Below, one piece after another: positions 56,746-64,000 of a DNA stretch of 64,000 bases; positions within the stretch are counted from its first letter, which is position 1; each line of letters opens with the position of its first letter. The position numbers and the translations under genes are program-made. The stretch is taken from the NCBI RefSeq assembly GCF_018350175.1, contig NC_058368.1, positions 50,593,815-50,657,814 on the forward strand, written 5' to 3'. This DNA comes from Felis catus (taxonomy: Eukaryota). The notes below the pieces were generated by a model, which saw nothing but the letters and a program-made list of their open reading frames with translations, searched no databases and had not been told where the DNA came from.

Positions 56746-58456
56746 GTCAGGGATGATTAACACCTCCTTGTTCTGAAGCTTGGTTTCTAGCCCCTCACTC
56801 CCCATATGCATTTCTTGTTGATTTCCACTGATTCATTTCTTATTTCATCCTGACTTCATCTATTGGTGGCTTTACTCCTTCTCAGAATATGACATTTCTA
56901 CTTTAGTTCTCTAGTAGTGGCTCTCATGTTGCCAGTCCCTACTGCAGTTTTGCCTTTCTCTGGCTCTAGTTTGTAGCATATGCCATCCCCTTTTCTTCAC
57001 AAAGCGTCTTGGAGGGTCTTCCTAGTATTTTCACCTAGGACCTTAATTATAATGGAACATACACAGGTGTCTGAATATTTAGAATATATTTAGAATCTAT
57101 CCCTCAGGGGACATGTTTTATTCTGTTTGTCTCCCACATCTTACCCTCTACAAACTCCAGAAATTTCTCTATATAGTGCTCTCCTATCAACACCTTACCC
57201 TGAAAATTCTACCTGCCACGGTCTCCTTTGACACCCACCTCTATCTCCCCCATTCAGTGTGTTCATTGAACTCTGCCTGGATTTCCTCTCCCTGAACCAT
57301 GGCCTGGAAACTCTCCAGGCAATAAGCTGATAGAATTGTAGAGCTCACTGAAATTGTTTCCCATCTCTAAGGAATTCTTATCCTTCCTTGTCAGTTATAT
57401 TTAGTGTCTTAACAAGCATTGCATCATTCATTTTGTCTGTATCTTAGTTATCTGGTCTGTGTTACTCCAGATTTAAAGCAGAAGTCTCTAGTCTGTTATG
57501 GGAAGACTTTGGGATCAAGCTTTGTAATAATAAGGGGATATTTCACTGGTGATCTAAATCACTGAAGGAAATTCTGTTTTGCTTTATTTTAAACCATGAG
57601 AACAAGATGAGAAATGGCAAGGATAAATTGTAAAGCTGGGTAGAGTACTAGAATTTTCTGTTCCTATTTTGATAAGGTTGTGGTTGTTTTTCTTGTGTGC
57701 TTTATGACTCAGGCTAATGGTGGAATTTAAGTACAGTGTGAGGGACTTGACAGATGTGATAAAACTAACTGTGGCAACTGACTATTTGGAAACAGACAAC
57801 ACCAATGAGGACCAGGCAGAGACTGGACTGAGGTTCCCAACCTCAAGCCACAGCACAAAGGTTCTGGGAGCCCTTATGGGGCGGGGGCGGCTCCTTGCCT
57901 CATCTCCAAATGAATGCTGAAATGACATTTAGAATCATAACTGTGTTCTCCTCTATAGTCCCAACATTTGCTATTTTTCTCCATAGGAAAAAATATGTAC
58001 ACATTAAAAATTCATAGTTATATGAATTGTGAAACATAGCAATGATTTTATTTGTTTTGTAGCAGTGCAAAATAGACAAATACTTATAAAGATAGAAAAT
58101 AAAATCACAAAAACAAACAAAAATGATGAACAATAACACAACTACCAATGATGCTTTAATTGCACCATCACATCCACATAAACCTGTTTATTCATTTCCA
58201 TACCATACATCTTAGACATACTTTGTTTTTGCTTTCCTCTTTTCTTTAATATTTAGACATTTTATCTAGCTTGTTTCTAAATGTGATATACTTTCTAAAC
58301 AGCTATAATTATTTGGAAACAAACAAAATCAGAAGCTTCTAATAAAAAAGTTCCTAGAAAATTAGGATACATGAATAAGTAATATATATTTGAAACTATT
58401 GCTTTTGGAGTCAAAACGAATTTTGCGATGGAACTGTTAGAGATAAATGATATTGC

Positions 58457-58628
58457 AGGCGCACCTGCGTGGCTCAGTGGGTTAAAGATCCTACTCTTGA
58501 TTTTGGCTTAGGTCATGATCTCACAGTTCATGGGATCAAGCCCCACCCCAGGCTCTGCACTGACCACACGGAGCCTGCTTGGGATTCTCTCTCTCCCCGT
58601 CTCTGTCTGTCCCTTCCCCACTTGCTCT

Positions 58629-58674
<46 letters not shown>

Positions 58675-58694
58675 ATAAATAAACATTTTTTTTT
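58457..58694 (+). mobile_element. Can-SINE inside the transposase fossil
   Basis: SINE body, (CT)n, tail. Confidence 0.94.
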
Positions 58695-58709
58695 AATGAT
58701 CTTATTTCA

Positions 58710-58920
58710 GGGTTGCCTGGGTGGCTTAGTCAGTTAAGTATCCAACTTCAGCTCAGGTCATGATCTCACAGTTCGTGAGTTGGAGCCCCATGTCAGGCTC
58801 TGTGCTCACAGCTCAGAGCCTGGAGACTGCTTCAGATTCTGTGTCTTCCTCCCTCTCTGCCCCTCCCCTGCTTGCACTCTGTCTCTCTGTCTCTCTCAAA
58901 ATTAAATAAAACATTAAAAA
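58710..58920 (+). mobile_element. Can-SINE inside the transposase fossil
   Basis: gggttgcctgggtggcttag head, A-tail. Confidence 0.94.
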
Positions 58921-60000
58921 ATGATTTAATTGCAAAAAACATATCCAAGGAGTTGGAAGAAACCTAAAATTCAGAGTTGAAAAATATTTGTTGGGAAATG
59001 GTGTTTACTGTTAAAAGAGTATGATGAGTCTATTTCATTTGTAAACAAAAGCACTTTTTTTCATTTGTTGGAAATGAGGGGTAAGAAAAAAATATTTTTA
59101 TTTACAAGCTCACAGGTTGATTTGAACAATTTTCTAGGCAGAAAAATAATAGTATCCAAATAATACAGAATGTGTGAATGATTGTTTCCCTTACCTCAAT
59201 AGAGTTCATGCAACAAACGACGGGGCAACAGTGGAATGGCTGTCAATTAGTATCAGAGGTTCTCATAAAGCATCGAAGATTATCTTAATTAAAGAGAGCA
59301 TTTCAATTTTAGTTTTATTGGAAAGATGACTGAGACCAATCTCAACAGAGATACAAGATTTTATCTGCAGTAAATCATAGTTGATTTTAACATAATTGAG
59401 CAGGCAGAAATGTAATAGTACTGATAACACGAGTGGAACATTTAATAGTTTCCCCAAAGTTTATGAAGAGAGATAGAAGACCTTTATATATGCACTGCCA
59501 TGATCACCATTTAATTTGGATGAGATTCTATCACCGAGTAGAACTCCAAAATTCTGTGAATATTGATAATTCTTTCAACAACAGTATTCAGATACCTGCA
59601 AAGAGATTGGCAATATTTCAATACATTATAAGCCAAGCAAACATAATATATTGAAGAACCTATGCAGCTTATAAAAATAGGTTGAACGGCATGTTAACAG
59701 ACACTGCAGCCCTGTCTCAAAAATTTCAATATATATTGAAATATTGGAAGTGGCATCAATGAATATTTCAGATACACAGGTGGCTGGTGAATTAAATTGT
59801 TTGCTGAATTTGCTTTCCAAATGAGAAATTGTTAGATCTCTAAAGAAATTAGCACATGTTAAGTACAAGGGACTTCAAAATAAAGCTATTTTTATTTAAA
59901 ACTGAAATAATTCTGTACTATTTATCATCTTAGAAAAATGGTGAATATTTCAAAACAATGTGTGACAGCAGATAAGAAACTATACTTTCTGACTTCCTTT

Positions 60001-61091
60001 GTATTTATTTATTTATATTTAATATGGAATTTATTGTCATGTTGGTTTCCATACAACACCCCAGTGCTCATCCCAACAGGTGCCTGCCTCAAAGCCTATC
60101 ACCCACCCTCCCCTCCCTCCCACCCCCAATCAACCCTCAGTTTATTCTCAGTTTTTAAGAGTCTCTTATGGTATGGCTCCCTCCCTCTCTAACTTTTTTC
60201 TTTTTTTTCCCTTCCCCTCCCCCATGGTCCTCTGTTAAGTTTCTCAGGATCCACATAAGAGTGAAAACATATGGTATCTGTCTTTCTCTGTATGACTTAT
60301 TTCACTTAGCATAACACTCTCCAGTTCCATCCACGTTGCAACAAAAGACCATATTTCATTCTTTCTCATTGCCAAGTAGTATTCCTTTGTGTATATAAAC
60401 CACAATTTCTTTATCCATTCATCAGTTGATGGACATTTAGGCTCTTTCCATAATTTGGCTATTGTTGATAGTGCTGCTGTAAACATTGGGGTACAAGTGC
60501 CCCTATGCATCAGCACTCCTGTATCCCTTGGGTAAATTCTTAGCAGTGTTATTGCTGGGTCATAGGGTAGATCTATTTTTACTTTTTTGAGGAACCTCCA
60601 CACTGTTTTCCAGAGTGGCTGCACCAGTTTGCATTCCCACCAACAGTGCAAGAGGGTTCCTGTTTCTCCACATCCTCGCCAGTATCTATAGTCTCCTGAT
60701 TTGTTCATTTTAGCCAGCATCTATAGTCTCCTGATTTGTTCATTTTAGCCACTCTGACTGGTGTGAGGTGGTATCTCAGTGTGGTTTTGATTTGTATTTC
60801 CCTGATGAGGAGTGACATTGAGCATCTTTTCATGTGCCTGTTGGCCATTTGGATGTCTTCTTGAAAGAAGTGTCTATTCATGTTTTCTGCCCATTTCTTC
60901 ACTTGATTATTTATTTATTTTTTTTTGCATGTGGAGTTTGGTGAATTCTTTATAGATTTTGGATACTAGCCCTTTGTCCGATATGTCATTTGCAAATATC
61001 TTTCCCCATTCCATCAGTTGTCTTTTAGTTTTGTTGATTGTTTCCTTTGCAGTACAGAAGCTTTGTATCTTCATGAGGTCCCAATAGTTCA
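60001..61091 (-). mobile_element. Young feline L1, 5'-truncated (~1.1 kb)
   Basis: ORF2 C-terminus '[25 protein letters not shown]...LLCGS'; 13-bp TSD tctgacttccttt (59988-60000/61092-61104). Confidence 0.97.
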
Positions 61092-61997
61092 TCTGACTTC
61101 CTTTTTAAAGCCTTGTTTGAGATTTGAAAAAAAACTTCAAAAGGAATAACATTTCTAAAATATTCCACAATATTTTTTCTTACTTCATCAGAATATTATA
61201 CAACACATATTCATATTTCTGAATGCTCTACATGGGATGAAAATGTAGTTTGAATAATAATCACATGTGTATAAAAACTGTATAGACTTCATGTCTTTTA
61301 TAGACTTAAAAAAACTTATGTAAGTTTTGGCTTTTTCATGGGACATGATCAATGATGCTCTGTGCTTTTGAGAGCTGTTGCATGTTGTGTTGTCTTGATG
61401 AATCTCGACATCTGCACAAAATGTTCATTTTCTACTTTGTGTTGCAGAAAAATACTATTCCCCACTACAAAGACAGAGGAGAGGGTCAGTGGTCTGGAAC
61501 TGAGGATTCTCGAGTAGAAATTGGCAACCAATTTATCTAGCTTGAACGGCTCTCTCTTCCTGGAGGAAAAAAATTGCAACATCAGTTTGGACAGGGATAA
61601 TACAGTATTTTCCAAAACTTAATCATAAACATTTTACACCACATTTACTTCATATACTGTCCTATTTAAATTTCCAACTTTTAATGATAAGTTTGAAATC
61701 TTCTGCTCCATTTTTGGTTTTATGCAATGTTGGCTTTTTTCAAGACAATGTGCTGGAATTAACATGTTATTTCATGAAAATAATACATTATTATTCAAGA
61801 TAATCAATTTGAAAAATTTCAACATAAAACTGCTCACAAAGCTACTTGCTTATTAGTGGTTATTCATGGAGAAATTTTTCTCTACCTGTCTGTATAATCT
61901 GCAATCTCAATTACCATTTCAATAATGCTACACTTTGGGTCTAATAATTAAAACTTTGGCAGCCCAAGCATTTTCAACTTCTGTATGCCATTTGTTC

Positions 61998-62387
61998 TGT
62001 TATGGACTAATTTGTGTCCCCTAGAAATTCGTACGTTGAAGCCCTAATCCCCAATGGGACTATATTGGAGGTAGGGCCTTTAAAGAAGTAACTAAGTTTG
62101 AATGAGGTAGTAACAGTGGGGCCCTAATCCAATATAGCTGGTGTCCTTAAGAGAAAGAGATACAAGGGGTGTGAGTGCACAGAGAAAAGGCCATCTGAGG
62201 ACACAGTGAGAAGACAGCCAAAGAGAGAGGAGAGAGGAAGCCAAACAGAGAGGCCTCAGGAGAAACCAAACCTGCTAACACCTTGACCTTGGACTTCTAG
62301 CCTCTAGAACTATAAAAGAATAAACGTCTGTTATTTATGCCTCCTAGACTGATATTTTGTTATAGTAGCTCTAGCAAACTAATCCAT
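61998..62387 (+). mobile_element. MLT1A0-like MaLR LTR
   Basis: 'tgttatggactaatttgtgtccc...gttgaagccctaatcccc...caccttgaccttggacttctagcct'. Confidence 0.88.
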
Positions 62388-63075
62388 GTCCCAACAAGTG
62401 CTAACCTCATTTTCTGTTCATTGGACTTCTATTACATGCCTGATTTATATAAGTAAATATTTCTTACCTATTTCTTATAGATATTCCCAACTGTAAAATG
62501 GGAATGCATACACCAAATAAGTGGGCTATTCATAAACTTAATAATTAGACATTTTGTCTCAATCTAGATAAATTATAATTGTTTTGAAATTAGTCTTCTT
62601 CAATCACTTCTTTTATTGCCTTAACTAGGTGTTACAGAATCAAAATCTATTCACCAAGTGTATATTTTCCCAACATATGGATTGAGTTCACAAGACATCT
62701 TGGACATCTCAGGCAAAAAAAAAATACTAAAAATGATTCTGAGTCTTGTTTTGTCTTGTATCTCTATCATGGAGTATATTTGAAGCAATTTCTATTGGTA
62801 TTCCAATTTGGGATTTGTTATCTCTGAGCTAGCCGGAAGTATCTTCACATTTTTCTCTAATATGCCCATGTAGTTTCATTTCACAACACAAAGATAAAAA
62901 ATAAGGGAAAGAACTTTATTTGATATACAGTACAGAGAAGGGAAACTACAGAAATACCTTCCTCTCACTCCCATTGATAAAGTTCAATTAATTTTTCCCA
63001 TATTTGGTCCCAAAGCAGGCTACCCTTATGTCAATGGCACTTCCCCTCCTAAGATGGAAGTTGTCAATAATAGAG

Positions 63076-63230
63076 TTTTTTAAAAATGTTTATTTGAGAG
63101 AGAGAGGGGGGAGTAGAGAGAGGGGTGGGGGGAGAGAATCCCAAGCAGGCTCCATGCTGTCAGCACAGAGCCCGAGCAGGGCTCTATCTAATGAACTGTG
63201 AGAATACCTGAGCCAAGATCAACAGACACT
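63076..63230 (-). mobile_element. Can-SINE lacking its head, cut by an L1
   Basis: 'gagaatcccaagcaggctccatgctgtcagcacagagccc...acctgagcc' then an abrupt switch. Confidence 0.85.
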
Positions 63231-63231
63231 A

Positions 63232-64000
63232 GGGGAGGAGACAAGATGGCAGAATAGCATGGAAGTTTTTTGTGTGTCGCACATCCATGAAATACAGCCA
63301 GACCAACACTAAACCATCCTGCACACCTACAAAACTGATCTGAGGATTAACACAACAATCTGCACAACATGAAACACAGAATTAAGCAGGTACATGGTGT
63401 GGAGAGGTGAACTTGGGGAGAGAGAAGCCACGGAGGGGAGGGAGCCACTTTTGTGTGCAGAGTGAGGACGGAGATGAGGAGGGAGGCGGGTGGAGAATAC
63501 AGGAAATGCACCCCTCCCCAAAGGAGCTGGAGAGAAAGTGGAAAATTGGAAACAGCCACAGGGACTGAACTAAAAAGGGAGAAAGGAGAAACGAGACAGT
63601 TTAAATTCCATTAAGACTGTAAACAAGGGGGGCTCAGAGTCTGAAACTCTGCAGCTTGATACCTGGAGTTGCTCTGGTGGGAAGGGTGAATCTCCAGGAG
63701 CAGAGTGGGGTCTGGGAGGTTCTCAGGCCACACGGGAGAAGCGGTTCCACTGCTGGAAGGACATTAGGTGGAGGCTGTGAGGCCACCTGGTCCCAGCAGA
63801 CCCCAGAGAATGGCCACATTTGCTGGTGCTGGAACAAGGTTGTTGGGGGTAAAGCCTGGTGCCAGATGTGCGTTGTGATTTTCCATAATCCCTGAGGCAC
63901 TGCTGCTACACTGTCTTGTGAACTTTTTCTGGGGTGGGCTGGCACCTGGCCACAGTCTCTGGGCATCAGCAGCAGCATGGTCCCACAAGCGCTCATGGGT
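63232..64000 (+). mobile_element. L1 5'UTR/internal promoter (start of a probably full-length L1; continues beyond the window)
   Basis: Starts ggggaggagacAAGATGGC (YY1-type motif typical of L1 5' ends); abrupt rise in GC content. Confidence 0.75.

Follow-up and report, generated by a model that had tools for sequence, protein, structure and literature searches.

A decayed ZMYM1-like hAT transposase fossil in the cat genome retains a transposase motif that is absent from 34 ZMYM1 orthologues

A window of 64,000 nt from the Felis catus genome (contig NC_058368.1), i.e., the whole stretch of DNA that was analyzed, contains the relic of a hAT-type transposase that resembles the C-terminal part of ZMYM1. 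The relic lies on the plus strand at 58345–61555, and, after excision of inserted repeats, a frameshift-aware alignment showed it to be collinear with amino acids (aa) 436–1060 of cat ZMYM1. It is a real, long-dead, broken and non-coding transposase relic without a coding function today. Because the fossil keeps enzyme motifs that are lost in all 34 ZMYM1 orthologues compared, a copy of the donor transposon is favored over a copy of the modern gene. We therefore hold, with moderate confidence, that the fossil is a defunct member of the hAT family from which the C-terminus of ZMYM1 derives, and that it was inserted on the placental stem.

Identity and state of the fossil

The original prediction had described a ZMYM1-like hAT fossil that is split by retroposons, and this was confirmed by tblastn as well as by frameshift-aware alignment. 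The alignment score of the fossil against ZMYM1 was 386–395, compared with 44 for the reverse strand and 36–44 for eight shuffled sequences. A tblastn search with langur ZMYM1 (P0003) against the whole window yielded collinear matches with a sum E value of 5e-16, and the human ZMYM1 peptides that the prediction had quoted agree nearly letter for letter with this langur protein. With refined cuts, 218 of 537 positions were identical to cat ZMYM1, and 16 frameshifts and 14 stops were found (215 of 536 identical positions with the first cuts). Judged by sequence identity, which is about 40%, the closest relative found for the fossil is the C-terminal part of ZMYM1.

The predicted extent of 58160..61600 held in part. 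Collinear homology continues to 61555, but clear homology to ZMYM1 begins at 58345 (permissively at 58257) and not at 58160. The predicted peptide blocks are present and ordered in three plus-strand frames (FWSQN 58403, GKWCLL 58993, LSISIR 59240, RPLYM 59478, YIEILE 59732, GLQNK 59870, GEYFK 59940, ELLHV 61372, SFSTL 61425, and EERVS 61476). The block RQERVSGL is also present, but not in one frame, as frame 2 reads TEERVSGL and RQ comes from frame 3. The 73-aa open reading frame at 59433–59654 was found as described. Homology to hAT transposases, comprising the RNase H-like core and the C-terminal dimerization region, is evident through the alignment with ZMYM1; in the cat protein (P0042), the domains DUF4371 and Dimer_Tnp_hAT span aa 484–659 and aa 990–1049, respectively. 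The features of the locus are as follows:

58123..58215, plus strand: possible start of the transposase frame, with two ATGs (58123/58126), 30 codons, then TAG
58257..58444, plus strand: decayed N-terminal zinc-finger region and first part of the ZMYM1-like body, firm from 58345
58445..58919, plus strand: two stacked short interspersed elements (SINEs) in one target site plus one target duplicate; the 72-nt copies are 78% alike
58920..59987, plus strand: main body, DUF4371/RNase H-like core, aligning to ZMYM1 consensus columns ~200–585
59207, plus strand: first Asp position, CAT, located by ungapped extension
59414, plus strand: second Asp position, AAT, in the main body
59493–59507, plus strand: CxxH-type box HCHDH, in the main body
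59595..59609, plus strand: PAKRL, S[AP]KR motif; its frame is free of stops, and the alignment around it has neither gap nor frameshift
59651..59692, plus strand: LKNLCSL*K*VERH, likely remnant of LxxLCxTRW..R; ZMYM1 has KKHTSQSCWTVH
59988..61091, minus strand: 5′-truncated L1 (3′ end of ORF2, 3′ untranslated region (UTR), polyA) plus one 13-bp target duplicate
61092..61555, plus strand: C-terminal part with deletions, located by ZMYM1 alignment; hAT dimerization remnant at 61313–61555
61417, plus strand: catalytic Glu position, CAA, in the C-terminal part

From 58345 onward, 19 of 35 residues are identical to aa 436–470 of cat ZMYM1, and the preceding segment 58257–58344, a zinc-finger region that we take to be of the TTF type, aligns only under permissive gap costs. 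The C-terminal part has 32 of 80 residues in common with ZMYM1 columns 710–790. At the far 5′ side, the frame at 58123..58215 includes a weak proline box (P-x-x-P...FP) like that at the N-terminus of hAT transposases. Over 58159–58209, 9 of 17 residues agreed with those of transposase L026; the score of 56 was the best among 12 proteins tried, while 150 random windows reached 42 at most; a transposase profile over this region gave a chance-level score. As the start of the transposase frame, 58123..58215 is suggestive only. Pyrimidine tracts that end in AG and resemble splice acceptors are located upstream of the two ATGs (57970–57987 and 58045–58062).

The D-D-E triad, the CxxH box, and the RW motif all have roles in hAT transposases. 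As a set, they are not intact in the fossil: the codons at the catalytic positions are CAT, AAT, and CAA, the box reads HCHDH, and a lysine codon followed by a stop occupies the likely RW site. Over 58920–59869, an independent contig from a public run was identical to the window without gaps, so the breaks within this interval are not assembly errors. A Pfam search with six single-frame translations of the window revealed no hAT domain. When one frame was compared by phmmer with 1.84 billion representatives, a single match was returned, the 51-aa fragment P0001, and not ZMYM1 itself; as even ZMYM1 was missed, single frames are too decayed for detection. P0001, which is encoded on a 934-bp Logan contig, is 82% identical to window positions 59759–59893 and has a residue at the stop at 59822. 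It also shares, as judged by eye, a six-residue deletion relative to ZMYM1 with the window, and for this reason it probably represents the counterpart of this locus in a different species. None of the 9 candidates from a word search with one 60-aa piece of the fossil was a match, and the same piece gave scores under 0.9 and no lead in the ESM Atlas. The PDB searches yielded no relevant match, the viral and phage collections no match, and all 8 matches of a metagenome pattern scan for ZMYM1-like DNA were due to chance.

Transposase states retained in the fossil

The 34 ZMYM1 orthologues represent all four placental superorders and were chosen from the best 120 of 255 relatives, the other 135 of which could include closer kin. 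Transposase frames from animal-type DNA in public metagenome-assembled genomes (MAGs) were used as outgroups, namely 10 distinct long frames, which are 23–32% identical to ZMYM1, and two partial ones. At 59592–59621, the fossil reads IPAKRLAIFQ, with the KR pair at 59601–59606. At the PAKRL site, S[AP]KR is present in 9 of 10 transposases and in none of the 34 ZMYM1 proteins, which have S-G-E-M and variants; the R of the RW motif is likewise absent from all 34. Further transposase-like signs are E237 and the codons at columns 212, 383, and 389, each of which is one step from the transposase residue and two from that of ZMYM1.

Diagnostic sites, at which the transposases agree and ZMYM1 differs, were chosen blind to the fossil in a ZMYM1-guided alignment from which the ambiguous columns 452–487 were omitted. 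A mixture fit to 12 such sites gave a transposase-like fraction f of 0.54, and a pure-ZMYM1 null reached this in 0 of 2000 cases. Across 15 settings, the null was reached in 0–19 of 1000 cases, and the transposase share climbed with site conservation from 0.16 to 0.68. A null that included prior protein drift was reached in 0–2 of 2000 cases, and permuted states in 0 of 2000. A pure-transposase ancestor was also rejected in most settings. A processed copy of crown ZMYM1 would be expected to carry ZMYM1 residues at the diagnostic sites; instead, about half of them were transposase-like. The region LKNLCSL*K*VERH was left out of the statistics, because indels are required to bring it into register, and because the W-T..R-T-L of ZMYM1 is fitted equally well by a second frame (with a stop at 59683).

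In direct comparisons with the fossil, seven ZMYM1 orthologues scored 362–422, with jackal at the top (422), and ten full-length hAT transposases 38–74. A search seeded with the fossil returned only ZMYM1 (2 of 188 candidates). The nearest outgroup, L020/L025, is a genuine hAT element, the two copies of which are 99.9% alike over 2982 bp and have 11-bp inverted ends and different 8-bp target duplications. The MAGs G001, G003, and G004 (loci L009–L049) carry much animal-type DNA with hAT transposases, with 89 matches in G003 and two near-identical complete elements with 8-bp target duplications in G004:C3; most likely, the animal-type DNA in these prokaryote MAGs stems from hosts and contaminates the bins. 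All 15 ZMYM1 orthologues displayed have kept the first and second catalytic Asp, and most of them the Glu, the exceptions being aardvark, manatee, elephant, and armadillo.

Divergence and phylogenetic placement

The identities between the fossil and each of the 34 orthologues fall in the narrow range of 42.0–45.9% (about 333 well-aligned columns), and cat ZMYM1, with 44.1%, is found in the middle of the table. A neutral codon model yielded 0.47 (0.41–0.54) changes per base for the fossil. After neutral decay of only 0.15, an identity of 73% would be expected, and 46% was seen. The mismatches are hardly more conservative than under neutrality (32% positive versus 29%). The feliform state was found in the fossil at none of 10 aligned diagnostic columns (3 had the state of other mammals and 7 neither), and the laurasiatherian state at none of three.

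A simpler-model tree placed the fossil on the ZMYM1 stem with a support of 48. In approximately unbiased (AU) tests, a grouping of the fossil with cat ZMYM1 was rejected (p-AU 0.003), as was a grouping with L025 (p-AU 2e-8). The trees do not settle the origin of the fossil.

Origin of the fossil

We infer an origin from a transposon rather than from a gene, and the age and order of events may be pictured as follows. A hAT family of the DUF4371 type would have been active in early eutherians, and ZMYM1 would have arisen when a duplicated MYM zinc-finger gene captured one copy behind it. Before the placental orders split, the S[AP]KR and RW motifs would then have disappeared from the new gene. 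Another copy would have landed at the fossil locus, with a protein roughly 80% like that of proto-ZMYM1 and with the motifs still present. This copy would have decayed neutrally by about 0.25–0.3 changes per base and would later have gained two SINEs and an L1.

Several results weigh against a copy of the donor transposon. Without the KR pair, the null was reached in 11–103 of 2000 cases, so the signal leans on this pair. The fossil also has ZMYM1-like states at V367, R417, and C726, and after the second Asp it has the S-T of ZMYM1 (S379, T380) where 10 of 10 transposases have G-A; as a single transition separates each of these two residues from the transposase state, they carry little weight. 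Its identity at universally conserved sites (26 of 52) is no higher than at sites private to ZMYM1 (29 of 61), and the outgroup transposases are distant, with 23–32% identity to ZMYM1. In a quick tree under a mixture model, the fossil fell within the unresolved ZMYM1 crown, with a support of 85 and on a long branch (1.24), and a group of fossil, cat, and hyena was not rejected (p-AU 0.09). Of 7 aligned diagnostic columns, 3 show the boreoeutherian state and one, the sole fully fixed column, the atlantogenatan state; the carnivore state was present at one of three columns (poorly aligned), and near column 740 a gap of one residue, which adjoins a frameshift, resembles a carnivore deletion. In favor of a donor copy are the 7 stops in 377 codons, compared with 15.6 expected if all change were neutral, and the two-stage fit (20% protein change, then a distance of ~0.25–0.3), which was 15 log units better than pure neutral decay; these figures are soft, because stops are avoided by the aligner and errors in the alignment of columns look like protein drift.

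The flanks likewise yielded no recognizable ends. hAT elements have terminal inverted repeats of 10–25 bp and an 8-bp target-site duplication, according to the accessible part of PMC3942097, in which the size of hAT elements and the Tip group are also described. The comparison of the flanks 56800–58200 and 61560–63050 for such ends, which the original prediction had suggested, revealed no inverted repeats or 8-bp duplications above chance (best score 19; six control pairs 18–21), and a single copy of the fossil was seen in the window by tblastn. At such a divergence, the short ends of an element would usually be lost. A stretch that starts with CAG (57813–57900) is followed by a GC-rich patch at 57860–57900. 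This stretch, with a left-end candidate at 57817–57832, resembles what we take to be the left end of mammalian hAT-Tip100 elements, but not above chance. The candidate was discarded as an element end, since the search pattern had been shaped on that very site and provided no test, and a right-end candidate near 63005–63041 aligned with it only weakly and not above chance.

An early, 5′-truncated retrocopy or duplicate of proto-ZMYM1, formed on the placental stem after domestication and before the motif loss, would account just as well for the mixture of ZMYM1 and transposase states, and it fits with the missing inverted repeats and with the observation of a single copy. As had been predicted, MYM fingers, polyA, and clear inverted repeats were not found: tblastn detected no MYM fingers in the window, the upstream linker of ZMYM1 was found on neither strand (the scores were 23 and 28, and the null had a mean of 24.5), and no polyA or convincing direct repeat follows the fossil frame. 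A 5′-truncated ZMYM1 copy would show no linker or MYM fingers either. A 5′ inversion, with the upstream part of ZMYM1 on the minus strand, was searched for and not found. The missing polyA and target duplication, the missing linker, and a frame that seems to have an ATG of its own and a proline box of the transposase type nevertheless make a copy of proto-ZMYM1 rather unlikely, although each of them is a weak test at such an age. Less probable still is a second gene that was independently domesticated from the same transposon, was functional in early placentals, and then died as a unitary pseudogene. It would account for the low number of stops (7 versus 15.6), and the ATGs at 58123/58126, the splice-acceptor-like tracts ending at ~57987 and 58062, and the GC-rich patch at 57860–57900 would suit it; domesticated hAT genes have often gained introns in the 5′-UTR, as stated in the accessible part of PMC3257199. 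However, no intact counterpart was returned (only the 51-aa fragment by phmmer and only ZMYM1 by the fossil-seeded search), and the mismatches are hardly more conservative than neutral ones (32% versus 29% positive). The 0 reads for the fossil in two raw RNA runs, of which 1–2% was sampled without a positive control, are uninformative on expression.

An ordinary processed pseudogene of crown-type ZMYM1 that arose after the radiation, e.g., in carnivores, and acquired its transposase-like residues by chance is very improbable. The mixture-model tree, the p-AU of 0.09 for fossil, cat, and hyena, the gap near column 740, and the top single score of jackal ZMYM1 (422) speak for it, whereas the divergence of 0.47 (0.41–0.54) per base is far too high, feliform and laurasiatherian states are lacking, the null at the diagnostic sites was rejected, and so was the pairing with cat (p-AU 0.003). 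The original prediction had not decided between an old ZMYM1 copy and a copy of the ancestral transposon family; the tests lean toward a copy of the transposon family or an offshoot from before the radiation, and against a copy of crown-type ZMYM1. All four origins agree that the fossil is non-coding now.

Inserted repeats and surroundings

The SINE pair and the L1 had been predicted to be younger insertions, and target-site copies and direct repeats were indeed found at their edges. The target-site copies of the SINEs begin near 58445 and 58919, and the fossil frame resumes across the excision; the SINEs are presumably of a carnivore, cat-like type (SINEC). The L1 is flanked by 13-bp direct repeats at 59988–60000 and 61092–61104. 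It contains a minus-strand frame of 158 aa at 60244–60720, which we take to be of L1 identity, and a 35-bp tandem duplication at 60671–60740. Downstream of the fossil, we assume an MLT1-type long terminal repeat at ~62000–62385 and the 5′ end of an L1 at 63230–64000. The window consists of repeat-rich mammalian DNA, in which no exons were spotted by eye.

Relation to known systems and significance

The likeness of the fossil to ZMYM1 covers aa 436–1060 collinearly at about 40% identity and includes many common non-motif residues as well as L-S-W before the last catalytic motif. In contrast to ZMYM1, the fossil has no MYM fingers or linker, and it has kept A-K-R and probably also the LxxLC/RW-type motifs, which are present in none of the 34 ZMYM1. 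It is 42–46% identical to all ZMYM1 orthologues, whereas these are at least 81% identical to the langur query. The DUF4371-containing, 'ZMYM1-like' hAT transposons of the L020/L025 type resemble the fossil in the order of domains and likewise have S[AP]KR and CxxH-type boxes. The identity of L020/L025 to ZMYM1 is only 32%, and its score against the fossil, which has no detectable ends, was 74. Both presumably belong to the Tip/Tip100 group. Arthur1/MER69C and Zaphod are dead hAT transposase copies of eutherian age. They are mammalian hAT-Tip100 repeats with coding remnants and are listed, among human hAT families, in the accessible part of PMC5753468. The fossil may be a copy of Arthur1/MER69C, of Zaphod, or of an unlisted family.

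In the sections available, PMC9004415 reports that many such fossils were found by frameshift-aware searches, and one of its supplements has no ZMYM or Tip100 entry; its complete fossil tables may include the human orthologue. The accessible parts of PMC3257199, PMC4028971, and PMC11522082 contain nothing on the fossil locus, and a term search in that of PMC10368747 gave no useful match. A report of a ZMYM1 pseudogene or of the donor family was not found in the literature, which is weak evidence for novelty, as most subscription papers and the repeat databases were beyond reach. The hAT origin of the C-terminus of ZMYM1, a gene confined to eutherians, is already known, and the relatives named in the accessible part of PMC3212892 are only distant elements of plants, for example HAT-1_Mad, to which it is closer.

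The fossil is of relevance for transposon domestication; no sign of a function today was seen, and mammals commonly carry dead copies of hAT elements. A fossil that stands between ZMYM1 and working transposases would pin down from which family, and when, the capture took place, and it would show that domestication was accompanied by the loss of S[AP]KR and RW while ZMYM1 kept D, D, and mostly E. Only tentatively do we regard the fossil as a missing link, i.e., as what is left of a eutherian hAT family not yet catalogued, or else of a sister gene since lost, about 80% ZMYM1-like and with the full set of transposase motifs. If this were true, orthologous copies in other mammals would allow the captured element to be reconstructed and the loss of the catalytic motifs to be ordered.

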